Origin: Minisyncoccota bacterium
GTDB lineage: Bacteria > Patescibacteriota > Minisyncoccia > Phycocordibacterales > UBA918
Assembly (NCBI GenBank): GCA_021129515.1
Contig: JAJOLD010000001.1
Location: forward strand, 164,850 to 228,849
DNA length: 64,000 nucleotides
Direction: 5' to 3'
This document shows, piece by piece, positions 8,382 to 63,840 of this stretch. Under the pieces are notes generated by a model that saw only the letters and a list, made by a program, of their open reading frames with translations, did not search any database and was not told the DNA's origin. The number at the start of each line of letters is the position of its first letter. Within the stretch, counting starts at the first letter, position 1. Both the position numbers and the translations under genes were made by a program.

Positions 8382-9155
8382 CTAGTGTGGTTCTTCTATC
8401 GCGAGCTTGATGAAGAATAACGTCAGCGTCGCAAAGATAAATGCCTGAATAAACCCAACAAATATCTCAAACGCCAACAATGGTACCGGTACAACGTACG
8501 GCACAAAGAAGAGTGCCACAAGAATAAGGGTTTTTCCAGCAAAAATATTTCCGAAGAGACGGAATGAAAACGACACAAGACGCGCCAACTCACTGATAAG
8601 CTCAATAATACCAATAAGGAACCCAAGTGGTGACTTGAAGTTGATAAACTTCCCTGCGTATTTCACAAATCCAAGCATCAACACACCGGCGATCTCAATG
8701 GTGAAGAACGCCACAATAGCAAACGCAATGGTGATATTGAGGTCAGTGTTACCTGGATACAGAAGTGGAATAAATTTCTCATGGCCGTGTGATTCTCCAT
8801 AGAATCCAATTGAGGTAACGCCGGGCAGGAGCCCCACCCAGTTAATCGCAAGTACAAAAATGAAAATAGTGAGAATGAGCGGGAAGAATTTATTTGCGAG
8901 CTTCTCGCTGCCGAGTGTGTCTTTAATGTATGAAAATGCCCCGCCTACCAATGTTTCCATAGCAGCCTGCCCCTTGCCTGGAATAAGCGCAATATTACGC
9001 TTAAACAAAAATGCACCCACTAACACAATGACCATAACGAACCATACGGTAATGAGTGTATTGGTGATAGGTACACCAAAGGCGTACCCGACTATTTCCG
9101 GGGCAAGGTGGATTGCAATACCATCTCCTGCGGCGTGTGCTGTTTCTACTGCCAT
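8382..9155 (-). CDS. atpB: ATP synthase Fo subunit a
   Basis: multi-TM, conserved Arg in SFSFRLFGNIFAGK. Confidence 0.9.
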   Translation of the reverse strand: MAVETAHAAGDGIAIHLAPEIVGYAFGVPITNTLITVWFVMVIVLVGAFLFKRNIALIPGKGQAAMETLVGGAFSYIKDTLGSEKLANKFFPLILTIFIFVLAINWVGLLPGVTSIGFYGESHGHEKFIPLLYPGNTDLNITIAFAIVAFFTIEIAGVLMLGFVKYAGKFINFKSPLGFLIGIIELISELARLVSFSFRLFGNIFAGKTLILVALFFVPYVVPVPLLAFEIFVGFIQAFIFATLTLFFIKLAIEEPH

Positions 9156-9172
9156 ATCAATCCGTGCAAGTA

Positions 9173-9385
9173 CTATTGCACGCGGGCAGTATATCCTAAC
9201 CTTTCAATCTCTTCAACAATGTTCTGTACGGAAACCTCGTTGAGATCTACTTCAAATATCCCCTTTTTATTATCGAGATCAATATGTACGAATTCCACAC
9301 CATGCAACATCTCGGTCATGGTTTGAATACCAACCACACAGTGGTTTGAGCGAATACCTGAAATGGAGATTTCAATCTTGTCCAT
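9173..9385 (-). CDS. small protein with HMA-like ferredoxin fold signature (no CxxC); longest ORF to 9457 uses TTG
   Basis: MDKIEISISGIRSNHCVVGIQT...; immediately upstream of atpB. Confidence 0.3.
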   Translation of the reverse strand: MDKIEISISGIRSNHCVVGIQTMTEMLHGVEFVHIDLDNKKGIFEVDLNEVSVQNIVEEIERLGYTARVQ

Positions 9386-9416
9386 GGGTATAGTATATAG
9401 TACGTTGAAAATATAC

Positions 9417-9445
9417 TTGACCTTCGAGTGCAAAACTCGTATTAT
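9417..9445 (+). promoter_or_regulatory. sigma70-like promoter TTGACC-17-TATTAT reading into the tRNA-Ala locus
   Basis: consensus -35 and -10 hexamers with 17-nt spacer; identical hexamers at 63547-63575 upstream of rpmG. Confidence 0.45.
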
Positions 9446-9482
9446 AGGCAGGTTCAATTTTTTGAACGCCCATTTTTTATAC

Positions 9483-9504
9483 GGGCCTGTAGCTCAGTTT
9501 GGCT
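9483..9504 (+). pseudogene. tRNA-Ala 5' fragment (acceptor 5' strand, D-stem 5' strand, D-loop), 22 nt, followed by hairpin 9509-9535
   Basis: GGGCCTGTAGCTCAGTTTGGCT matches first 22 nt of the full tRNA-Ala with one change. Confidence 0.7.
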
Positions 9505-9542
9505 GGGGTTGAAAAAGTCTGGGGGACTTTTTCAAAGTTTTG

Positions 9543-9583
9543 ATTTATAAATTAACAAATGAGTTTATTGTTCAGTGCACTGT
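9543..9583. repeat. left arm of ~45-bp imperfect inverted repeat flanking tRNA-Ala
   Basis: atttataaattaacaaatgagtt...ttcagtgcactg is the reverse complement of 9659-9704. Confidence 0.7.
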
Positions 9584-9658
9584 GGGCCCGTAGCTCAGTT
9601 TGGCTAGAGCACCTGTTTTGCACTCAGGAGGTCGCTGGTTCGAGTCCAGTCGGGTCCA
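9584..9658 (+). tRNA. tRNA-Ala (anticodon UGC)
   Basis: cloverleaf folds manually; G3:U70 Ala identity pair; T-loop TTCGAGT; CCA not encoded. Confidence 0.9.
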
Positions 9659-9704
9659 CAGTGCACTGAACTTCAAACGTGAACTCATTTGTTAATTTAT
9701 AAAT
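9659..9704. repeat. right arm of inverted repeat flanking tRNA-Ala
   Basis: reverse complement of 9543-9583 with one indel. Confidence 0.7.
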
Positions 9705-9722
9705 ACTCAGGAGGTCACTGGT
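9705..9722 (+). pseudogene. partial tRNA-Ala copy (anticodon-loop 3' side through T-stem 5' strand), 17/18 match
   Basis: actcaggaggtcactggt vs tRNA ctcaggaggtcgctggt. Confidence 0.6.
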
Positions 9723-10033
9723 GAGAAGCGAATACTTGGAGTGAGAAGTGCTGGGAGCACTTTGCAAGAGGTTAACTGCTGCGCAAGCAGCGACAACCTG
9801 AACAGCTTCAGTGTGAAGTCGCAAGACCTTGGGAGATATTTCTGGAAGCATGAACAGAAATATCCTCAAGGTTGAAACAGGATGTTTCAAGAGGTTGTCA
9901 GTCACGTAAGTGACGACAACCTATACTGCATTTGTAAAATGCACAGAATCTGTATGCAAGGCATTCTAAAACTGCATTCGTAATCCAGATAAAAGTAAAC
10001 TTTATATCTGGTTACTCATTTGTTTTAGTAAGA

Positions 10034-10055
10034 TTCGAGTCCAGTCGGGTCCACA
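10034..10055 (+). pseudogene. tRNA-Ala 3' fragment (T-loop through acceptor 3' strand and discriminator)
   Basis: ttcgagtccagtcgggtccaca identical to 3' 22 nt of tRNA-Ala; separated from 9705-9722 by ~310-nt hairpin-rich insert. Confidence 0.7.
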
Positions 10056-10123
10056 ACACATAAGAAAACCTGCCCTGCGGTAGGTTTTTGCGTTGTGGAA
10101 GGTAAAACTATATTTTTTCTATT

Positions 10124-10190
10124 CCTACATTAAAAAATATTTTTGCCCGGGCAGGTGCTAGTTATGAGCGTTAGCGTGAGAAATGACTTA
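10124..10190. repeat. copy A of tRNA-flank mosaic repeat (cctacat...aaaaata...cccgggcaggt)
   Basis: shares motif with 52776-52844 and 54848-54915. Confidence 0.55.
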
Positions 10191-10425
10191 ACGTCATTTT
10201 GCAAGACTCACTAAGATATTTGAAGTATGAGAAATATCTTAGTGAGTAGACAGTTCCTGTAAGGAATTACTAGCGAACGACACCAGAAGGTCTCGCTTTG
10301 CTTTCGTTTCTATGTGGAAGGCGAAGCGCTGTGAGTTGCCCCTTACCTAGGGTGACGAACCGAGGGTCCGAACAGGAGGTTCTTAGCAAACAAAGTGAAC
10401 TTAGAAACCTGACGTCATCAGAAAA

Positions 10426-10465
10426 GCGAAAAGAGCCCTCTCACTAGTGAGAGGGCTCTTTTCGC
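10426..10465. terminator. 19-bp perfect hairpin (gcgaaaagagccctctcac-tag-gtgagagggctcttttcgc), T-tract on minus-strand side
   Basis: seen directly; lies in the ~600-nt leader upstream of the cyclase gene. Confidence 0.4.
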
Positions 10466-10705
10466 TTAGAAAAACAAGATTATCAATGTCGTATTCAATC
10501 AAAATGTTCTCAGCCATTTTTTGAGCCTTGTCGTAGTTGGGAATTCCCATATATCTATAGTATCCACCTCCTCAGTAAAATGTAACTTATCCCCCATGCC
10601 CTCCTGACAACTTCCGTAAGAGGCATACCCTACGTATAGGACTCGTGCTTGCAGCGGGTTCGTTTTGGGTATAGGGTAGGAGGACATCCTTCACGTACGA
10701 GCAAC

Positions 10706-11287
10706 ATGTCAAAAAATCTGCACCAAGCGTCTATTCTTTTTTCTGACCTCTCTGGTTTCAGTAGGCTTTCTGAAAAAGAAATGGGGCTTTTTTTTGAAAT
10801 TGTACTCGACAGACTCACCCACATCATCACCAAAGAGAAACCGCTTGTTTCTAATACGTGGGGTGATGCACTCTACCTCGTTTTTGATAATACCGATGCA
10901 GCAGCACGCTGCGCACTGGCCATACGCGATACGGTCAAAAATACAGATTGGAAATCATGTCACATCACAAAAGATTTAAAAATGCGTATCGCACTGCATG
11001 CTGCCACCATAACGATGGTGACCGACCCAGTCACCCACAGAGATAATGCTGTTGGGGTTCAGGTAAATAAGGTTGCACGGCTCGAACCCGTGGTACCACC
11101 CAACGAAGTATTTGTCACCGAAGAATTTAAAAAAGCCACCAAACGTTCCAAGACCATACGTTTTGATGACATTGGGTTGGTGACCCTCGCAAAAAAATGG
11201 GGCAGTTCCCATATATACCGACTTCGCAGAAAAACTGATGCCGCATTACTCCCTACCGAGTACGTCGCACTCTTTCCAACGCAGTAA
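10706..11287 (+). CDS. minimal class III adenylate/guanylate cyclase catalytic domain protein (ORF extends to TTG at 10649)
   Basis: ILFSDLSGFSRL (metal Asp), WGDALYLVF, MRIALHAATI, GVQVNKVARLE cyclase-homology-domain motifs; no regulatory domain. Confidence 0.75.
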   Translation: MSKNLHQASILFSDLSGFSRLSEKEMGLFFEIVLDRLTHIITKEKPLVSNTWGDALYLVFDNTDAAARCALAIRDTVKNTDWKSCHITKDLKMRIALHAATITMVTDPVTHRDNAVGVQVNKVARLEPVVPPNEVFVTEEFKKATKRSKTIRFDDIGLVTLAKKWGSSHIYRLRRKTDAALLPTEYVALFPTQ

Positions 11288-11395
11288 AAGACAAAGGGCT
11301 ATACATGCACTTCTCTTCGCTTGTGTTGCATATAATGGAAAGGCCCCAGCATTACTGGAGCCCTTTGTTCTGTCGTGAGTACATGTGTGCTGCGC

Positions 11396-11626
11396 CTAGT
11401 CGATACTGAATGTAGGAACTTTAGGCATCGGCAGACCTCTCTCAAGCGCAGCTTCCAAAGATGGGCTAAATATACGACCCGCAGGATAAATCGTGAAAAA
11501 TGGACCTGTGCACTCTGCACCTGCTTGTACACATAGTGTATCGCGTATGTGCGGCGAATCTGCTTCATGTACACCTGTATCAGCATCATCTTCTGCTTCC
11601 AAACCCACAAAAAAAGTTTCACTCAT
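11396..11626 (-). CDS. hypothetical small acidic protein
   Basis: strong SD GGAGGTG 6 nt upstream of ATG; convergent with cyclase. Confidence 0.45.
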   Translation of the reverse strand: MSETFFVGLEAEDDADTGVHEADSPHIRDTLCVQAGAECTGPFFTIYPAGRIFSPSLEAALERGLPMPKVPTFSID

Positions 11627-11800
11627 GGCGCACCTCCAAAATCATTGAAGAACGTACTTACTCAGCCTACCATCAAATTACTCTACATGCCATATACCTA
11701 GTGCATATGGAGACGGAAAACCGTTACTGTGCCGTAACTTCAATCTGGTGATGAGGTTGTAAAAAAAGCTAGCAATCCCTTGCTAGCTTTTCTGTGCATA

Positions 11801-12160
11801 CTATGCCACCTGCAGCTCTTGGTTAATATCAGAACCAAACGATATAGATCGGTCTACAACGCGTGTTGTTATATAGTAAATCTGACTGGTATACAAGATA
11901 TGTGCTGCAGATTCACGTATACATTCACGCATCGCACGCCGTGCCACAACTGCTGCATACTCCATCGTAGAATGGGTGTCTTTTTGCTCTGGTTTTTGTA
12001 AGAATTGATCAGGATTCTCTACAATCCCTTTTTGTATATCCTCTTCTGAAGAATCTATTGGTAGAGTGAGTGTATGAACACTATATCCCAGTGGATACTC
12101 CTTATTTACGCGCGCATTTACGACCCACACAAACAGTGCTGCTGTGTCTTGTACTGACAT
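11801..12160 (-). CDS. hypothetical protein
   Basis: ORF track, 119 aa, no motif recognised. Confidence 0.35.
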   Translation of the reverse strand: MSVQDTAALFVWVVNARVNKEYPLGYSVHTLTLPIDSSEEDIQKGIVENPDQFLQKPEQKDTHSTMEYAAVVARRAMRECIRESAAHILYTSQIYYITTRVVDRSISFGSDINQELQVA

Positions 12161-12263
12161 ACGTTGTATAGTCTCCGTAGTATGTTTAAAAATGAACGAA
12201 ATTGTCCACCACAGAGTATACTGATAATTACCAGTATGTACAGTTTTTCTGTGGATAGCCGCT

Positions 12264-12566
12264 CTATGTCAACCGAAGTCGGTCAATCCGCTTTGCAAGA
12301 TCAAAATCTTTTGTGGTGAGCCCTTTCGGTTCATGGGTCGCTAGTTTCACCTTTACTTTGCCATAGGAGAGTTCAATGGTTGGATGATGGTCAATCACTT
12401 CAGCATGTACGGTAATCTTTGCAACAAAAGCAAGTGCCGTGATAAAAGATGGAAACGTAAATGTTTTAGAAAGTTGTGTATGCTTTTTGTTTGGCACCCA
12501 CTCAGAAAGTGCCTCAATGCGCTTTTGCACCTCCTTTTCTCCAAAGACCTTTGGTTTACACGGCAT
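12264..12566 (-). CDS. pterin-4a-carbinolamine dehydratase (PCD/DCoH) family
   Basis: 100 aa; AEVIDHHP and ATHEPKGLT motifs typical of PhhB. Confidence 0.6.
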   Translation of the reverse strand: MPCKPKVFGEKEVQKRIEALSEWVPNKKHTQLSKTFTFPSFITALAFVAKITVHAEVIDHHPTIELSYGKVKVKLATHEPKGLTTKDFDLAKRIDRLRLT

Positions 12567-12594
12567 ACTGTTTCACTCACTACAATACCACGAC

Positions 12595-13572
12595 TTAGTG
12601 CGCTGTATATAATGCATCTGTGAGTAGATGCTCAATTAATCCATCATACGTTCCACCAACCGCGTCGATAGCCCTAGGGACGAGCGATGCCGGCGTCAAT
12701 CCTGGCAAGGTATTTACTTCGAGAAAGTAGAGTGCATCATCAGCAACAATAAAATCAGAACGAGAATACTGTGACAATCCCAGTGTTTGATGAATATGTT
12801 GTGCTGCTTGTTCTATGTGCTGCTTTACCTCAGTATCAAAACGTGCCGGGCATATTTCCTCTGTCGCATCGTTATATTTCACCTCGTAGTCAAAAAAATC
12901 ACTGGTATGGGGCGGCACAATTTCAACTGGTGGGAGTGCGTAAAGTTGCTGTCCTCGATAACGCTCGATCACCCCGCAGGTTGCTTCGCGACCAATAATT
13001 CGCTGTTCCACAATCACCTCATCATAGGTCTCGAGTGCAGCTTTGAGCAGTTCAGGAAGATGTGCCGGACTCTCAACCATAACCGCACCAACCGAAGAGC
13101 CCAACGCCACCGGCTTAATGACGTAGCTTGGACCAAATGAATCAGCAATTCTATCGGTCACTGAAAACAGTGCCGGAAGCGAGCTGCGCGACACCAACAT
13201 ATGCGGAGCAAGCGCAAATGCAAGATCGGCAACATGATCCTTGGTGAGTGCTTTGTGCATCGCAAGTGCCGAGGCATACGCACCACTACCCGTATACGGA
13301 ACAGCGAGTCGGTCGAGTAATCGCTGTACCGTACCGTCTTCACCATAGGTGCCATGAAGTGCCACAAACACGACATCAACGCCTTGGAGGATTTGCTCTG
13401 GAAAGCGCACATACCCGTCAACGAGCCATTCTCCAGATTGCGTAATAACCACATCAATCGGGTCGTAGGTGGTTCTATCAATAGCAGCAAGCACTGAAGC
13501 GCCCGTTTGCATGGAAATATCGTATTCCACACTGGGACCTCCGCGAAGCACGGCTACACGAGTCTTTTGCAT
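12595..13572 (-). CDS. ddl: D-alanine--D-alanine ligase
   Basis: ATP-grasp; N-terminal VAVLRGGPSVEYDIS, C-terminal FLEVNTLPG motifs. Confidence 0.9.
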   Translation of the reverse strand: MQKTRVAVLRGGPSVEYDISMQTGASVLAAIDRTTYDPIDVVITQSGEWLVDGYVRFPEQILQGVDVVFVALHGTYGEDGTVQRLLDRLAVPYTGSGAYASALAMHKALTKDHVADLAFALAPHMLVSRSSLPALFSVTDRIADSFGPSYVIKPVALGSSVGAVMVESPAHLPELLKAALETYDEVIVEQRIIGREATCGVIERYRGQQLYALPPVEIVPPHTSDFFDYEVKYNDATEEICPARFDTEVKQHIEQAAQHIHQTLGLSQYSRSDFIVADDALYFLEVNTLPGLTPASLVPRAIDAVGGTYDGLIEHLLTDALYTAH

Positions 13573-15171: not shown

Positions 15172-16599
15172 CTAATACAACTTGCGCATGACCGTCTTTG
15201 CAAAGGGTGTGAGCTTGTCTTTAAAGTACCCTGAGATGACCCGCTTATTAATACGCGTCGCAGCTGGATATGGATAGGTTTTATTGAACAACGCTGACAC
15301 ACGCAGCCCACTCGACATCGCGAGTATCAACTCTTGCACAAGCTCGCCCGCACCCCGCGCAACCATACTTCCTCCAAAGAGCGTCCCTTTCTTTGGGTGC
15401 ACCAAGAGCTTCACTCTGCCAGACGTTGCACCCTCGGTAATCGCTCGGTCATCATGAACAAACGACTCTTCGAGTACTCGATACGATATGTTCCGTTCTT
15501 TAAGCACTGCTTCACTGAGCCCGAAAGTTGCTATTTCAGGTGTGGTATACGTAACCCAGCTCATGTGGTCGGTGTTGAGCTTTTTTTTGAAAAACGGCAC
15601 AAAGAAGTTGCGGAGTATCACACCCGCATGTAGCTCTGCCGCATGGGTGAACTGGTGTTGCCCTGCAGCGTCACCACACACAAACACACGAGGATTCGAA
15701 GTGCGTAGATATTGGTCAAGGATAATTTTGCCACAATCATCAGTGTTAATGCCCGCATTCCCAAGCCCTAGTGTATCGACATTGAGCACACGACCAATAG
15801 AGACCAAAAGCGCATCAAAGGGCAATGCCGTTTCTTCGCTCCCCTCCGCATCACGCACAATCAGGTGCCCATCCTCAATACGCAGCACCTCCTTTTTAAA
15901 GTGCAATGCAACACCATCTTCGAGTAATTGCCCCAAGAGCACCTCAGACATAGCTTTGTCCTCACGTGCAAGTATTTGCGCGTCATTAGTCACCATAGAC
16001 ACCTCGCTCCCTAGTTGCCTGAATGCCTGACCAAGCTCTACACCAATAGGACCCGCACCAATCACCACGAGTTTCTTAGGCAGTGTTTTAAGATTGAAAA
16101 TAGTTTCATTGGTATGTATCACACCTGCGTCAGTCGCTTCTTTGATACCGGGAATGTCGAGTGTGCGTGACCTGGAGCCCGTTGCAATCACAATTTTTTT
16201 GCTGGTGTATTCCTTCCCGGCGACTGACACCGCATCTTTTGACCTAAAGGTTGCGTGTCCCAAAACCACATCAATACCCATACCGCGGAAATGCTCTGCA
16301 TTTTCATGCTCACGTATCGTCTCCCGCGCCCCGTTCACATGCGCCATCACCTTTTCCATATCCACCACACCCTCCTGCGTCACTCCATACTGCGTAGCTT
16401 GCTTCCCCGCAGCAACCGTGCGCGCTGCATGTATCAATGCCTTTGAAGGCACACAGCCATAGTTGAGACAATCACCGCCAATACTCGTGTCTGATTTGTC
16501 GATAAGGAGCACCCGACACCCAACCGTGTTCATAAACACCGCAATATTGAGTCCTCCTGCTCCTGCACCGATCACGATAATGTCATATATATCTTGCAC
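15172..16599 (-). CDS. FAD-dependent pyridine nucleotide-disulfide oxidoreductase (dihydrolipoyl dehydrogenase / mercuric reductase class I family)
   Basis: GAGAGG FAD fold, redox-active GGDCLNYGCVPSK, second Rossmann VVIGAGPIG, dimerisation domain. Confidence 0.85.
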   Translation of the reverse strand: MQDIYDIIVIGAGAGGLNIAVFMNTVGCRVLLIDKSDTSIGGDCLNYGCVPSKALIHAARTVAAGKQATQYGVTQEGVVDMEKVMAHVNGARETIREHENAEHFRGMGIDVVLGHATFRSKDAVSVAGKEYTSKKIVIATGSRSRTLDIPGIKEATDAGVIHTNETIFNLKTLPKKLVVIGAGPIGVELGQAFRQLGSEVSMVTNDAQILAREDKAMSEVLLGQLLEDGVALHFKKEVLRIEDGHLIVRDAEGSEETALPFDALLVSIGRVLNVDTLGLGNAGINTDDCGKIILDQYLRTSNPRVFVCGDAAGQHQFTHAAELHAGVILRNFFVPFFKKKLNTDHMSWVTYTTPEIATFGLSEAVLKERNISYRVLEESFVHDDRAITEGATSGRVKLLVHPKKGTLFGGSMVARGAGELVQELILAMSSGLRVSALFNKTYPYPAATRINKRVISGYFKDKLTPFAKTVMRKLY

Positions 16600-22160: not shown

Positions 22161-23540
22161 CTACATCGACTTAAGAAACACATGCAGCTCCTTTTTCTTT
22201 GCTTCAGCGAGCTCCTTCTCGGGAGCTTCTACTACAAACTTCAGTGCGTCTTCCGTCACGCTTTGCTTTACCACAAACCAATAGTCTTTGAAGGTCACGG
22301 TCACCCCGTCAAATTTCTTCACCGTACAGGATTTCATCTTTCCGTATTTTGCTGCTACTTTCTCAAGGGCTTTCTTTTTATCGGGTACCTTCACCAAAAT
22401 CTCTTCCGTCTGGTGATACACCCCAAATTCCGCAATCATCTCTGAGAATGTCTGTCCTTCTTTTGCTGCCTCAGTGTACGCAGCCAACACCTGCAAGAAC
22501 GCAAGAATACCGGAGTCCGCATAGAAGTTGTCTTTAAAATAGAAGTGCGCTGAGTGCTCACACCCAAAGAATGCGTCGTGCTTACGCATTTGCTCTTTGA
22601 TAAACGCATGCCCTACCCGAGCGCGAACTGCTTTGCCACCGTATTGCTTAATGGTCTCCTCGTATATTTTGCTTGTGAACACCGTGTATACAAACGGCAA
22701 CCCTTTCTTTTTCTGGAGCGCATACTTCGCGAGCATTGCGCCAATCACCGCACTATTTATATACCACCCCTTCTCATCGAAGAACGCCACGCGGTCTACA
22801 TCGCCATCAAAGGAAACGCCAAAGCCATACTTCCCGGTCTTGAGCTCAGCAACAATTGCCTTTTGGTTTTTCTTGAGTGTTGGGTTGGAATCACGATTTG
22901 GAAACGAGCCATCGAGCTTGAAGAAAAGCTTTTTTGTTGTGACAGGCAGTGTGTCAGTGAGTACCGACTTGAAGGTTGTTGCCATACCATTTCCGGCATC
23001 CATCACCACTCGAACCTTTCTATCTGATTTTACCTTCACCTTCCCTGCAACATACTTCTTATATGCAGGAAATACATCTGTCTTGGTCACCCTTCCTTTT
23101 TTCTTGGATGCAGCAAAGGTTCCACGCTCCACTAGCTTCAAAATAGCCTTGAGTCCCGATGCATTGGTGACCGGCACCGCGCCTGGCAGCACGAGCTTGA
23201 GTCCATTGTATTCCTTAGGATTATGTGAGGCGGTAATAACCACACCATGCGCTTTCATGGTCCCCGATGCGTAATACATCGCAGGCGTGCCCACCATACC
23301 GATATCGATTGCTTCCGCCCCAGCGTCAGTCACGCCTTGCACAAATGCATTCCGAAGCGCTGGTGAGGACACACGCATATCACGCGCCACAATCACCTTC
23401 TTTAGCCCAAAATGCTGTACAAATGCCCGCGCCGTGCGATACGTGGTTACTTCGTTAATCTGCGTTGGGTAGACACCGCGAATATCTGCATCTTTAAATG
23501 CTTTTTTATATTCCTTAGGCAATGTATCAGCAATCTTCAT
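22161..23540 (-). CDS. phosphoglucomutase/phosphomannomutase
   Basis: active-site TASHNPKEYNG, four-domain length 459 aa. Confidence 0.9.
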   Translation of the reverse strand: MKIADTLPKEYKKAFKDADIRGVYPTQINEVTTYRTARAFVQHFGLKKVIVARDMRVSSPALRNAFVQGVTDAGAEAIDIGMVGTPAMYYASGTMKAHGVVITASHNPKEYNGLKLVLPGAVPVTNASGLKAILKLVERGTFAASKKKGRVTKTDVFPAYKKYVAGKVKVKSDRKVRVVMDAGNGMATTFKSVLTDTLPVTTKKLFFKLDGSFPNRDSNPTLKKNQKAIVAELKTGKYGFGVSFDGDVDRVAFFDEKGWYINSAVIGAMLAKYALQKKKGLPFVYTVFTSKIYEETIKQYGGKAVRARVGHAFIKEQMRKHDAFFGCEHSAHFYFKDNFYADSGILAFLQVLAAYTEAAKEGQTFSEMIAEFGVYHQTEEILVKVPDKKKALEKVAAKYGKMKSCTVKKFDGVTVTFKDYWFVVKQSVTEDALKFVVEAPEKELAEAKKKELHVFLKSM

Positions 23541-28400: not shown

Positions 28401-28410
28401 TGCATAAGAG

Positions 28411-28437
28411 AAAAACCACCCTACTGGGTGGTTTTTC
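28411..28437 (+). terminator. rho-independent terminator (aaaaaccaccc-tact-gggtggttttt)
   Basis: perfect stem + T run. Confidence 0.6.
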
Positions 28438-28525
28438 TCTCTGGATTAGCCTGCGGCGTCTTCTGTGGCTGTGTAGTACTTCGAGCTAGCTGTGAGAGGG
28501 TCATTTTGACCCGTCTCGGGCTAGT

Positions 28526-30138: not shown

Positions 30139-30495
30139 ATGGCACAACTACGAACACAAAAGCTTGCTGAAGAATACACGACCTACCGAAACACTTGGAC
30201 CGAAGAAACTGGTTGCGTGCTCTGTACCTGCGATGTCGCCAAGGAATTTACGTATTGGAAAATTTGTCCGGCGAAGTTCCCCTACGACCTCATTGCGTCT
30301 CGTCACGACATGCTCCTCCCGAAACGACACGTGACTGAGAACGGACTCACCGATGCAGAGCATGCAGAATATCTCGACATTAAACGCAACCATCTCAGCG
30401 ACTACGAGTTTGTTGTTGAAGGCACCTCACATACGCAAACCGTGCCGCAGCATTTTCACCAACATCTCCTCGTCATGAAAAAGATACCCGAATAA
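30139..30495 (+). CDS. HIT-family hydrolase
   Basis: histidine triad HFHQHLL near C-terminus, Cys-rich N-terminal CVLCTC. Confidence 0.55.
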   Translation: MAQLRTQKLAEEYTTYRNTWTEETGCVLCTCDVAKEFTYWKICPAKFPYDLIASRHDMLLPKRHVTENGLTDAEHAEYLDIKRNHLSDYEFVVEGTSHTQTVPQHFHQHLLVMKKIPE

Positions 30496-30530
30496 GAAAA
30501 AGAGTCGCAATTGCAACTCTTTTTCTTGCT

Positions 30531-34622: not shown

Positions 34623-35678
34623 CTATGCAGCAGACTTTTCACCCAAGATATCTACAATCGCAATTTCAAGTGGTAGTTGCGGCAGGAACGACTTCCCTGT
34701 TTGCTCAGCCGCTTCAAGCAAACGCAGCAGCAGGTGTGAGTGAATATGTGAACCGGTCTTCTCTGCATATGCCTTGAGGAGTGCACGGTCGTCTTCTGCG
34801 TACTGCTCAAGCAGCATGTCGGCATCGGCTTGGTTATGGCGAATGAGTATGACTGCGCGCACACGTTCTAAAAGGAGTTTCATAAAAAGCTTCATATCAA
34901 CGTGTGCTGACACCGCGCTTCCCACAGCATGCAGTGCTTTTTCTGTACTACCGCTATCAAATGCTTCGAGAATATCCATTAAGAGCACATTCTTTGGCGC
35001 ACCGAGAATTGACGCTACTTCATCTGCACCAGCGAGCTTGTCGCCTGAGGCAAGCATGACCTTCTGTGTAATGCCGAGCGCGTCACGAAACGACCCATCC
35101 GCTGCAATCGCAACCATGTCAGCTGCCTGTGGGTCCATGTTGAATTTCTCTTTACGTGCAATATCAAACACGGTATCGCGAAGTACCGCACGGGTCGGCG
35201 CACGAAACTGAAATACCTGACACCGAGAAGTGATGGTATCGAGCAACTTGTCTTGCTCGGTTGTCGCAAGGATAAAGACGACGTGTGCAGGAGGTTCCTC
35301 AAGGGTCTTCAGCAGTGCATTGAATGCCTCTTTGGTGAGCATGTGCACCTCGTCAATAATGTATACCTTGTATGGCGATTCGTATGGGAGTGTATGCACG
35401 GCGTCGCGCAGCTCGCGGATGTCATCGATACCACGGTTAGATGCAGCGTCAATTTCATAAATATCAACCTCAGCAACGCCTATTTCTCGTGCAAAAATGC
35501 GTGCCACTGAGGTCTTTCCGGTACCTCGAGAGCCGGTAAACAAGAGCGCATGCGGAATAGTCTTCTTGGCAATTGCTCCTTCTAAGATAGAAACAATATG
35601 GTCTTGATTACGCACGTCCGCAAATGCCTCCGGACGATACTTTCTATACAATGCAGTCGGTTCATTATTCATGCCCAT
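34623..35678 (-). CDS. dnaX: DNA polymerase III subunit gamma/tau, short
   Basis: AAA+ Walker A GSRGTGKTS, DEVHML Walker B, SRC motif TITSRCQ. Confidence 0.9.
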   Translation of the reverse strand: MGMNNEPTALYRKYRPEAFADVRNQDHIVSILEGAIAKKTIPHALLFTGSRGTGKTSVARIFAREIGVAEVDIYEIDAASNRGIDDIRELRDAVHTLPYESPYKVYIIDEVHMLTKEAFNALLKTLEEPPAHVVFILATTEQDKLLDTITSRCQVFQFRAPTRAVLRDTVFDIARKEKFNMDPQAADMVAIAADGSFRDALGITQKVMLASGDKLAGADEVASILGAPKNVLLMDILEAFDSGSTEKALHAVGSAVSAHVDMKLFMKLLLERVRAVILIRHNQADADMLLEQYAEDDRALLKAYAEKTGSHIHSHLLLRLLEAAEQTGKSFLPQLPLEIAIVDILGEKSAA

Positions 35679-54594: not shown

Positions 54595-54678
54595 GCGTCG
54601 GTGGCAGAGTGGTCAATTGCATCAGACTGTAAATCTGACGGGCTTCGCCCTACGCTGGTTCAAATCCAGCCCGGCGCA
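54595..54678 (+). tRNA. tRNA-Tyr (anticodon GUA), long variable arm
   Basis: manual fold; anticodon loop CUGUAAA; T-arm GCTGG-TTCAAAT-CCAGC. Confidence 0.9.
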
Positions 54679-54680
54679 CA

Positions 54681-54712
54681 AATAAAAACACCCCGGATGG
54701 GGTGTTTTTATT
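54681..54712 (+). terminator. rho-independent terminator aaaacaccccggatggggtgttttt
   Basis: perfect stem + T tract. Confidence 0.65.
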
Positions 54713-54759
54713 TGTGCGCCGGGAGCACGTGACCTGCGTCACGTGCGGCTGGATTTGAA
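54711..54759 (-). pseudogene. inverted copy of tRNA-Tyr 3' end interrupted by 23-nt palindromic hairpin (agcacgtgacctgcgtcacgtgc)
   Basis: tttgtgcgccggg[...]ggctggatttgaa is the reverse complement of ttcaaatccagcccggcgcacaaa. Confidence 0.6.
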
Positions 54760-62161: not shown

Positions 62162-63388
62162 TTATCTTCGAAGTGTCACCCACGCGAGTAATCGTCGATA
62201 GAGCGTCATAACTTTGTCTGCAGCACGGCGCCACGACAGTGTTTGAAGCTCTTTCTGACTCTCGGACACCAGTTGTTGGTTGAGGACTCCATAGGTGACC
62301 ACAGCAAGCATCTTGTTTGCCATTTCCTCAATGTCCCAAAAATCAACCTTGAGTGCGTGGGCAAGCACTTCTGACACCCCCGACTGCTTGGAAATTAATA
62401 CTGGCGTACCATGTTGAATAGCTTCAAGTGGCACCAGTCCAAATGGCTCTGAGACTGACGGCATGACGAGTAGGTCGACGCTCTGGTAGAGACGGTCACG
62501 CTCAACACCCCACAACTCACCCGCAAACAAGACATGGTTTGAGAGTCCCAACTCCCCAACAAGATGCATGATTTGCGGTTTCATATCACCATACCCTGAG
62601 ATGACAAACAGAACATTCGGGTTGGTATCGACCACCCTACGCGCTGCGCGCACAAAATAGTCCACTCCCTTCTGCACCGTAATGCGCCCGTGGTAGAGAA
62701 TGATTTTTTTACCCTCAAGTCGATGTGCGACTAAGGTAGGCTCATGCTGTGGTGGCGCATGCACTTCATTGCCGTTATGTACCACTTCCACTTTCTCCGG
62801 GTCAACATTGTGTTTATCGACAATCACATTTTTGGTGAATTGACTCACGGTCACGATACAGTCTGCTTCACGAAACGCCGCGTATTCAATAGCGCAAATA
62901 TCAGAGTCAACACAATCACTCGCAGCCTGGTCATACGAGGTCGCATGCACATGGAGAATAAGTTTCTTGCCACTCACCCGCTTCGCGGCGATACCGGCAA
63001 GGTATGATACCCAGTCATGTGCATGGATGAGGTCAAAGGTTTCCTGCTTGGCAATGTCTGCTGCCTTTGCTGCATAGCGATGGACCTCTTCAATGACGGT
63101 ACGAGAGAGACGTACCCGCCTACCGTCTGGCGTAACAACCTCAAGGAGTGACTGCGCATGCTGGTATGGTCGCAGCGGCGAGTCAATTTCATACAGTTTT
63201 GCAGGATGCTGTGAACCAATATCAGCAAAAATAAAACGCATGGACGAATCCACGCTCTGTGTCCGCGGCAGCACAAAAACCACCTCAGCACCTTGCATCA
63301 TAAGCTCTGCAGTCAGCCCCTGACAGGCTTTGCCGAGACCACCTACATTTACGGGTGGAAATTCCCACCCAAACGTCAAAATCCGCAT
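62162..63388 (-). CDS. GT4/GT5 glycosyltransferase, glycogen-synthase-like
   Basis: N-terminal FPPVNVGGLG; C-terminal EPFGLVPLEAIQHGTPVL. Confidence 0.8.
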   Translation of the reverse strand: MRILTFGWEFPPVNVGGLGKACQGLTAELMMQGAEVVFVLPRTQSVDSSMRFIFADIGSQHPAKLYEIDSPLRPYQHAQSLLEVVTPDGRRVRLSRTVIEEVHRYAAKAADIAKQETFDLIHAHDWVSYLAGIAAKRVSGKKLILHVHATSYDQAASDCVDSDICAIEYAAFREADCIVTVSQFTKNVIVDKHNVDPEKVEVVHNGNEVHAPPQHEPTLVAHRLEGKKIILYHGRITVQKGVDYFVRAARRVVDTNPNVLFVISGYGDMKPQIMHLVGELGLSNHVLFAGELWGVERDRLYQSVDLLVMPSVSEPFGLVPLEAIQHGTPVLISKQSGVSEVLAHALKVDFWDIEEMANKMLAVVTYGVLNQQLVSESQKELQTLSWRRAADKVMTLYRRLLAWVTLRR

Positions 63389-63799: not shown

Positions 63800-63840
63800 A
63801 AAACAAAATACAGGGGTTAAACCCCTGTATTTTGTTTTTT
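63800..63840. terminator. bidirectional terminator aaaacaaaatacagggg-ttaa-acccctgtattttgtttt
   Basis: 17-bp stem flanked by T/A runs. Confidence 0.7.

Follow-up and report, generated by a model that had tools for sequence, protein, structure and literature searches.

Is the small cyclase gene that lies beside a rearranged tRNA-Ala gene in a patescibacterial genome the signal generator of an antiphage system, a working enzyme of another kind, or a remnant? The question is raised by a stretch of 64,000 nucleotides (nt) of contig JAJOLD010000001.1 (assembly GCA_021129515.1, positions 164,850 to 228,849 of the forward strand), which was analysed as a whole and is called the window here. The host is a member of Candidatus Pacebacteria within the candidate phyla radiation (CPR, Patescibacteria) and has a tiny genome. 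A preliminary description, made from the sequence alone, had read the gene at 10706-11287 as a minimal cyclase of the Pycsar antiphage type, lying behind a structured leader of about 600 nt and brought in as cargo at the tRNA gene. Our analysis supports part of this. We consider it reasonably likely that the gene encodes a functional-looking class III nucleotidyl cyclase, which consists of the catalytic domain only, that it lies in a probably acquired segment, and that the DNA upstream of it is not one leader.

The gene product consists of a class III cyclase homology domain (CHD) without a sensor, and its catalytic set is complete. The Pfam model PF00211 matched residues 3-162 of 193 (profile positions 4-171 of 183) with 32.8 bits at a cut-off of 21.9. 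AlphaFold2 (AF2) returned a model with pLDDT 88.7 and pTM 0.87, and its 50 best Foldseek neighbours in the PDB were all catalytic domains of class III adenylyl or guanylyl cyclases, with TM-scores (TM) of 0.66-0.85. Named fold matches were the CHD of Rv1900c, the rhodopsin-guanylyl cyclase RhGC, Ma1120, CyaB, CyaC and Cya2; Rv1900c, RhGC, Ma1120 and CyaB lay at TM 0.75-0.85. When a profile made from 85 relatives was compared with the PDB, 3mr7 (E 7.8e-16), the beta subunit of soluble guanylyl cyclase (sGC beta, 1.2e-15), Ma1120 (2.9e-11) and also AC9 were matched. According to Pfam and AF2 the whole protein is one CHD followed by a short C-terminal helix. The earlier reading as an essentially CHD-only product of 193 amino acids (aa), free of sensor or regulatory domains, was thereby borne out.

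The motifs that had been picked out by eye, FSDL, GDA, MRIALH and VNKVARLE, are present and fall on the catalytic columns of the profile alignments. Asp14 (FSDLSG) and Asp54 (WGDALY) align with the metal-binding Asp residues of 3mr7 and Ma1120. Arg94 (in MRIALH, M-R94-I-A-L-H98) aligns with the phosphate-binding Arg of the RIGxH strand, and G117-V-Q-V-N121-K-V-A-R125, which overlaps VNKVARLE, represents the canonical transition-state Asn/Arg motif GxxVNxxAR. The profile alignment also revealed the base-specifying residues. At the first position Asn50 is aligned with Lys of 3mr7 and Ma1120 and with Glu of sGC beta, and at the second Asn114 is aligned with Asp. Since both base-specifying residues are Asn, substrate and product are unreadable from the sequence. 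An enzyme with this set of residues would work as a head-to-tail homodimer and turn a nucleoside triphosphate into a 3',5'-cyclic nucleoside monophosphate (cNMP) by two-metal catalysis. The metals would be held by Asp14 and Asp54, and the phosphates and the transition state by Arg94, Asn121 and Arg125. As no sensor is fused to the domain, its output may be set by the expression level or by a partner in trans. A receptor for the cyclic nucleotide was not found in the 64-kb window by tblastn with two CRP-type proteins, where the best hit had E 0.15 and fell into an open reading frame (ORF) that Pfam assigns to DUF4406.

The reading frame itself is well preserved. The ORF spans 10649-11287 on the plus strand, and its first ATG at 10706 gives the 193-aa form; the same 193-aa product is called in public assemblies of the same organism (P0001, 99% identical). 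The in-frame extension that starts at an upstream TTG is probably untranslated, because the alignments to relatives start at residues 5-9 of the ATG form. We compared the strains on seven contigs, which are ~99.9% identical. The cyclase ORF is intact in every contig of the species that spans the whole gene, with no frameshift or stop codon in any strain, and the sole single-nucleotide polymorphism (SNP) in the gene is non-synonymous (M93I). The codon-use score of the gene is 0.041 compared to a host mean of 0.064 (sd 0.047) and hence host-like, which suggests a long residence as an open frame.

The relatives of the window protein form a CHD subfamily with the signature FxDxxGFS ... NTWGD ... 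RxxxH ... ARxEP. Its residues D14, N50, T51, G53, D54, R94, G117, A124, R125, E127 and P128 are all found in the window protein and are invariant in an 85-sequence alignment. A word-index protein search gave only 18 matches; an exhaustive HMMER search gave 2704 representative clusters at E <= 1e-3, 41 of them at E <= 1e-30. Architectures and residues were counted in the best 150 of the 2704 clusters (151 aligned sequences including the window protein). Asp14, Arg94 and Arg125 are kept in 151/151 sequences, Asp54 in 150/151 (one gap) and Asn50 in 145/151. Position 121 is more variable, with Asn in 77, Ser in 45 and Thr in 21 of the 151 sequences, and here the window protein carries the majority residue. 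The best matches other than the protein itself had E-values from 3e-48 to 1e-30. Identity to subfamily members is 34-49%, the next-closest cyclase reaching no more than 45-49%. When GTDB species genomes were scanned with a pattern, at least 592 subfamily loci were recovered.

In 82 of the 150 clusters the CHD is C-terminal, within proteins of 550-800 aa. It is N-terminal with a C-terminal extension in 56/150 and central in 2/150, and about 10 of the 150 clusters look stand-alone, several of them from very short contigs, so that some are perhaps fragments. Pfam analysis of full-length examples revealed the order (RyR)-TPR-S/MAP3K_TRAF_bd, then a domain of ~170 aa without family, then the CHD; other members carry HAD or HEAT domains. 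The multidomain relatives of the RyR/TPR-S type occur in Acidobacteriota, Proteobacteria, Cyanobacteria and others. In many members the middle domain shows, when read by eye, a pair of motifs, 'TGH ... S/AACG', separated by about 45 residues, which calls to mind a caspase-like His/Cys dyad, and this pair is lost in the RyR-bearing forms of Pyrinomonadaceae. The clade closest to the window protein (47-49% identical, 417-482 aa) is built differently: the CHD is followed by a conserved, beta-rich domain of ~240 aa that has no known relatives, modelled by AF2 with pLDDT 82, for which Foldseek found only a generic likeness to beta-sandwiches (TM <= 0.46) and no function can be assigned. In 4/4 loci examined (L004, L084, L085, L166), the gene directly follows or overlaps a gene for a peptidase of the S9/DPP-IV type. 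The two genes, S9 peptidase and CHD-beta-sandwich, overlap or lie within ~40 nt of each other (L004, 5799-9278; L166, 1635-5092; L085, 225-3183; L084, 2-1175).

We also compared the neighbourhoods of 81 subfamily loci, as the preliminary description had proposed. Within 5 kb, a TIR-domain gene was found at 29 loci, an nSTAND1 NTPase gene at 18 and either of them at 43; clustering of the neighbourhoods of the 81 loci revealed no single conserved partner. On a plasmid of Priestia aryabhattai (NZ_CP128553.1, 59026-67235; locus L176), a subfamily cyclase occurs together with a gene whose annotation reads 'Pycsar system effector family protein'. The TIR and nSTAND1 neighbours and the Priestia locus together indicate that the module circulates in conflict-type contexts. 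The gene order on the plasmid is the annotated effector, two hypotheticals that look paralogous, a CHD protein with a tail that resembles TPR-S by eye, a stand-alone RyR protein and a convergent TIR protein, so that modules known from fused proteins are split across separate genes. Two further settings resemble those of defence genes. A short-form relative follows SIR2-TIR and nSTAND1 genes and precedes a Bestrophin-like channel gene at L001 (2087-5358), and another lies between a TIR-WD40 gene and a gene for a cNMP-binding/HTH_Crp regulator at L002 (4306-9498). The (RyR)-TPR-S - ~170-aa domain - CHD architecture, often beside TIR_2 or nSTAND1, was present at L005, L008, L026, L038, L041, L048, L060 and L065. 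At the window locus Pfam, AF2 and the ORF list revealed no fused accessory domain and no S9 peptidase, TIR or nSTAND1 neighbour. In the literature on conflict systems from the Aravind group that we searched, the RyR-TPR-S-CHD architecture was not found described, and neither the Asn/Asn pocket chemistry nor the RyR/TPR-S and TIR/STAND biology of the subfamily was found in the literature searched.

How did the gene come to lie where it does? Its neighbours are the ATP synthase operon, an HMA gene, tRNA-Ala, orphan ORFs, PCD, Ddl and UvrC. Between the rearranged tRNA-Ala and the PCD-Ddl-UvrC block lies a lineage-specific segment of ~2.6 kb. Besides the cyclase gene it holds two orphan ORFs, and ~1 kb of it is non-coding DNA rich in hairpins. 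In L087, L089 and L091, the nearest relatives available, tRNA-Ala(UGC) comes immediately after Ddl or Ddl-PCD and is encoded on the same strand, whereas in the window 2.6 kb lie between tRNA-Ala and PCD-Ddl and the tRNA has the opposite orientation. Judged by title, none of the best 80 of the at least 592 GTDB subfamily loci belongs to CPR/Patescibacteria. The segment also differs in its translation signals: GGAGG occurs within 30 nt upstream of 3/4 segment ORFs compared to 1/42 host genes, and four AGGAGG motifs outside tRNAs, of 28 in the 64 kb, cluster in 10374-10678. Taken together, the data lend moderate support to a lineage-specific segment that was probably acquired horizontally and has been ameliorated since. 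The earlier idea of acquired cargo beside a rearranged tRNA gene draws this moderate support from the orphan ORFs, the tRNA-Ala/Ddl synteny and the GGAGG motifs, while base composition, codon use and the search for an integrase do not speak for it.

Several observations weigh against the reading of a functional cyclase in an acquired segment. The relatives used for synteny are distant (UvrC 45-69%, Ddl 44-54% identity). The GC content of the segment is unremarkable and, as described above, the codon use of the cyclase gene is that of the host; there is no ORF of integrase size in 9000-12600; and the 22-nt repeat derived from the tRNA (9639-9660 / 10034-10055) brackets only ~370 nt upstream of the cyclase gene, with no third copy in the 64 kb. 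Because there is no GC anomaly and no integrase, and the repeat does not bracket the gene, an island is not delimited. On the side of the protein, the canonical base-specifying pair (Lys/Asp for ATP, Glu/Cys-type for GTP) is not matched, since Asn50 and Asn114 take these places. Finally, the nearest relatives have a further domain at the C-terminus and an S9 peptidase as partner, neither of which is present here, and the gene could be a truncated relic.

This last point leads to the main rival explanation. On or after transfer, truncation might have reduced a CHD-beta-sandwich gene (along with the S9 peptidase partner) or a gene for a larger sensor-cyclase to a decaying catalytic stub without a role. 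Indeed, the alignment shows that the window protein stops within the linker located before the C-terminal domain of its nearest relatives, the DNA around the gene is pieced together from tRNA fragments, hairpins and orphan ORFs, and the only SNP in the gene changes the protein. However, all invariant and catalytic residues of the subfamily are intact, no strain carries a frameshift or stop, and the host-like codon use suggests that the frame has long been open. Moreover, tblastn with 11 full-length relatives detected no remnants of TPR-S, RyR, the middle domain or the beta-sandwich in 9000-13000, where the CHD alone was matched. Stand-alone forms, some of them perhaps fragments, also occur among the best 150 clusters. 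We regard the relic as unlikely, although it is the alternative that deserves most weight, and continue to favour a functional-looking cyclase. The features of the locus are collected in Table 1.

Table 1. Coordinates of the cyclase gene and of the features around it (positions in the window).
Feature	Position	Strand	Description
Cyclase gene	10706..11287	+	193 aa, CHD only, stop codon included; from ORF list, PF00211, AF2, Foldseek
In-frame upstream extension from TTG	10649..10705	+	holds AGGAGG at 10678-10683 and -10-like GGTATAGGG at 10668-10676; promoter and Shine-Dalgarno (SD) roles putative, from sequence
orf76	11396..11626	-	76 aa, convergent with the cyclase gene; GGAGGTG 5 nt before ATG
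orf119	11801..12160	-	119 aa; NCBI 'hypothetical protein LR017_00830 [Candidatus Pacebacteria bacterium]'
orf49	10401..10550	-	49 aa, divergent from the cyclase gene; GAGGAGG upstream; 3' part is the terminator hairpin; gene called in public annotation; coding status uncertain
tRNA-Ala(UGC), intact	9584..9659	+	inside a long inverted repeat, among fragments of a second tRNA-Ala
tRNA-Ala 3' copy	10034..10055	+	exact 3' 22 nt, att-like remnant; followed by hairpin and T-run at ~10065-10089 (read from sequence)
Palindrome	10424-10445 / 10446-10467	.	perfect, 22+22 nt; A-tract, GC core, T-tract; resembles a bidirectional intrinsic terminator
AT-rich hairpin	10206-10221 / 10232-10247	.	perfect 16-nt arms, 10-nt loop; no function assigned

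The next alternative is that the cyclase supplies the signal for a Pycsar-like or other cNMP antiphage module, whose effector would be orf76, orf119, orf49 or a more distant gene of the genome. The subfamily makes such a role conceivable: it is enriched in conflict-type neighbourhoods (TIR or nSTAND1 at 43/81 loci, see above), and on the Priestia plasmid one of its members is paired with an annotated Pycsar effector and with RyR and TIR proteins. In addition, the cyclase gene lies in a variable segment beside a tRNA, and the PADLOC model for the Pycsar cyclase PycC (PDLC00734) did match the protein. This match is weak, however (20 bits, E 7.7e-5, residues 7-127 only), it stays below that of the generic PF00211, and other members of the subfamily score similarly weakly. 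PycC structures were absent from the 53 PDB sequence matches and from the 50 best fold matches. The 64-kb window gave neither a homolog of the Priestia 'Pycsar effector' nor a CRP-like domain, and searches for viral or phage relatives, or for viruses and phages that carry the cyclase, came back empty.

The neighbouring ORFs do not supply the effector either. As had been described, no effector gene follows on the same strand, orf76 and orf119 being convergent with the cyclase gene; orf49 is divergent, and none of the three forms an operon with it. The HMM libraries revealed no cNMP-binding, TIR or transmembrane (TM) domain in orf76 and orf119, so that the check proposed for these two proteins came back negative. 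Both have only same-species matches among 5.8 billion proteins and occur in none of the 81 cyclase loci. For orf76, orf119 and orf49, no Pfam, NCBIfam, PADLOC or PHROG model matched among those run. The codon use of orf119 is frame-specific and host-like with a low GC content at third codon positions (GC3, 0.33), while the codon-use score of orf49 is below the host mean. In orf76, the strain SNPs at 11506 and 11546 go with two amino-acid differences in a variant (P0020, 76 aa, 97% identity). An adjacent operonic effector with a cNMP-binding domain fused to a TM or TIR domain is not present at the locus, and nothing that defines Pycsar beyond a CHD-type cyclase is found there. We therefore see no recognisable Pycsar system at this locus, given the weak and partial PycC match, the missing effector and the missing operon, and consider a Pycsar-like or other cNMP antiphage module with an effector here or elsewhere in the genome to be improbable. 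A likeness in kind is not absurd in view of the TIR/nSTAND1 contexts of the subfamily, yet it is not present at this locus. Still less probable, in our view, is that the cyclase and orf49, orf76 and orf119 make up a new minimal cyclic-nucleotide module acquired at tRNA-Ala by an ultra-small CPR bacterium, be it a stripped-down defence with an unrecognised effector or an Asn/Asn-pocket cyclase that makes a non-canonical cNMP for a symbiont-host relationship.

The DNA upstream of the gene was expected to be an ORF-free region of 590 nt that forms a structured leader. We found instead that each strand has a 49-aa ORF and that the minus strand has another of 62 aa; one of these ORFs, orf49, is publicly annotated. 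The copy of the tRNA-flank repeat is real and consists of the exact 22 nt of the tRNA-Ala 3' end. Of the two hairpins reported, the AT-rich one has perfect 16-nt arms as described, and the larger one is likewise real and perfect, only that its arms measure 22 nt and not 19 (10424-10467, described as 10426-10465). Both are far beyond chance. At least nine intergenic palindromes of the same design (A-tract, GC core, T-tract) occur in the window, for example at 54670-54723 (after tRNA-Tyr), 30494-30527, 63800-63838, 28407-28440 and 2469-2514. Because at least eight of them lie elsewhere in the window, we conclude that 10424-10467 is the genome's ordinary bidirectional terminator. Two same-species assemblies based on short reads end inside this palindrome, at 10438 and 10430.

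The folding energies point in the same direction. Taken as a whole, the stretch 10056-10705 (650 nt) folds much better than shuffled sequences (z = -6.0), but this energy stems from discrete distal hairpins, and the gene-proximal 253 nt (10468-10720) fold no better than shuffles (z = -0.5). Rfam gave no match for the leader at the gathering threshold or, on short stretches, at E <= 10, apart from noise such as miRNA models on the palindrome, and an nhmmer search of the non-coding DNA against ~165 fetched loci returned tRNA matches only. A scan for the sigma-70 consensus found nothing convincing in the 240 nt that precede the cyclase gene. A -10-like GGTATAG box lies 30 nt upstream of the ATG and resembles boxes before other genes, a resemblance that goes no further than the sequence. 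The most parsimonious reading is that the upstream 650 nt are not one leader and comprise a tRNA 3' remnant with terminator, an unexplained hairpin, a bidirectional terminator, a divergent small ORF and ~155-240 nt of ordinary 5' region. The gene would then have a short 5' region within ~10551-10705, with the GGTATAGGG box (10668) and AGGAGG (10678) as its putative signals. That the ~650 nt are a genuine long regulatory leader, attenuator- or riboswitch-like, whose hairpins control read-through, appears very unlikely to us, since the z-score of -6.0, the two perfect hairpins and the lack of a strong consensus promoter in the last 240 nt are set against a distal origin of the folding energy, a hairpin of the genome's common terminator design, a divergent ORF with its own SD-like motif between this hairpin and the cyclase gene, the absence of Rfam matches and of homologous sequence in any fetched locus, and the GGTATAG box close to the ATG.

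The tRNA-Ala region next to the segment has an unusual structure of its own. The intact tRNA is surrounded by an inverted repeat (9543-9590 / 9651-9704), and the palindrome CAGTGCACTG occurs on both sides of the tRNA. A second tRNA-Ala is present in three fragments in order and in the same orientation, with tRNA positions 1-22 at 9483-9504, 39-56 at 9705-9722 and 56-77 at 10034-10055. The first T-stem pair is A-U in the fragment copy and G-U in the intact tRNA-Ala. The remnant tRNA is interrupted, exactly in its T-loop, by a block of 311 nt (9723-10033). This block folds with -112 kcal/mol compared to -75 +/- 4.6 kcal/mol for shuffles (z = -8.0) and forms a string of about seven hairpins, several with GNRA-type loops (GCAA, GUAA). 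Two of the hairpins (9765/9791 and 9888/9914, at a spacing of 123 nt) have the common frame CAAGAGGTT...CGACAACCT and differ in their inner stems. The block had no Rfam match and no homolog in the fetched loci, and a scan of viral sequences with a gapped motif from it gave 20 matches without extended similarity, which we take as chance. It could be a structured RNA, an intron-like insert or the debris of a recombinase site.

Two further observations concern the host genome. Several host genes (e.g. 34623-35678, 22161-23540 and 62162-63388) have a box of the GGTATACT or GGTATAGA type 0-35 nt before the ATG. Together with the near-absence of SD motifs, the position of these boxes close to the ATG suggests that host genes have very short leaders or none. 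A pyridine-nucleotide disulphide oxidoreductase gene at 15172-16599 is one ORF of 475 aa in the window and in contig L168, and in the near-identical contig L003 (14467-15894) it is called as pieces of 313 and 130 aa, which points to either a frameshift between strains or a fault in the assembly.

Should the enzyme prove active, it would provide a case of cyclic-nucleotide synthesis in a genome of Pacebacteria (CPR), a group with very reduced signalling repertoires. With 193 aa it would also be a convenient minimal representative for determining the product of the 'NTWGD' CHDs with an Asn/Asn pocket. The subfamily to which it belongs is widespread (at least 592 GTDB loci; 41 clusters at E <= 1e-30) and typically tied to RyR/TPR-S sensors and TIR/STAND neighbours. 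The message of the locus itself is negative: it holds no recognisable Pycsar system, and the hairpins upstream of the gene represent ordinary terminators and the debris of mobile elements rather than a riboswitch-like leader.

How does the window protein compare to known cyclases? PycC of the Pycsar (pyrimidine cyclase antiphage) systems (Tal et al. 2021) is likewise a class III enzyme of the CHD type in which the two metal-binding Asp are conserved, and some PycC proteins are small. Its base-specifying residues are non-canonical (PMC11224242), the specificity residues being Y50/D94/R97 or F100/R142/Q144 (PMC11224242). These have no evident counterpart in the window protein. PycC differs further in that it is encoded in a two-gene operon with an adjacent cNMP-binding effector, and neither the operon nor the effector is present at the window locus. 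The multidomain RyR/TPR-S proteins and the CHD-beta-sandwich proteins from the operon with S9 peptidase are closer, as they belong to the same CHD subfamily, are 34-49% identical and have the invariant residues in common. In contrast to them, the window protein has no accessory domain and no TIR, nSTAND1 or S9 peptidase neighbour, and it comes from a CPR host.

The best structural match is Rv1900c (LipJ) of M. tuberculosis (PDB 1ybt/1ybu), with E 1.7e-12, TMq 0.75 / TMt 0.83 and 25% identity. This protein differs in that its CHD is fused to an N-terminal alpha/beta-hydrolase domain, and the match by sequence is weak (E 0.039). In the work of Sinha and colleagues in 2005, Rv1900c is reported to have Asn in place of the adenine-specifying Lys and to be an adenylyl cyclase nonetheless. 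The most similar organization is that of Ma1120 from Mycobacterium avium (PDB 4wp9 and related), which is also a soluble, stand-alone adenylyl cyclase of ~170-200 aa that consists of the CHD only. Ma1120 was matched by sequence (E 6.6e-6), by profile (with the value given above) and by fold (TM 0.69-0.80), and its metal-binding Asp and its Arg align with those of the window protein. However, identity is only 17-19%, Ma1120 has Lys at the first base-specifying position where the window protein has Asn, and at the second position it has Asp, again compared to Asn here. The window protein belongs, moreover, to a separate subfamily with NTWGD and ARxEP signatures. Stand-alone minimal CHDs are thus already known from Ma1120, and the locus itself offers no new system; what is unusual in the present case is the host.

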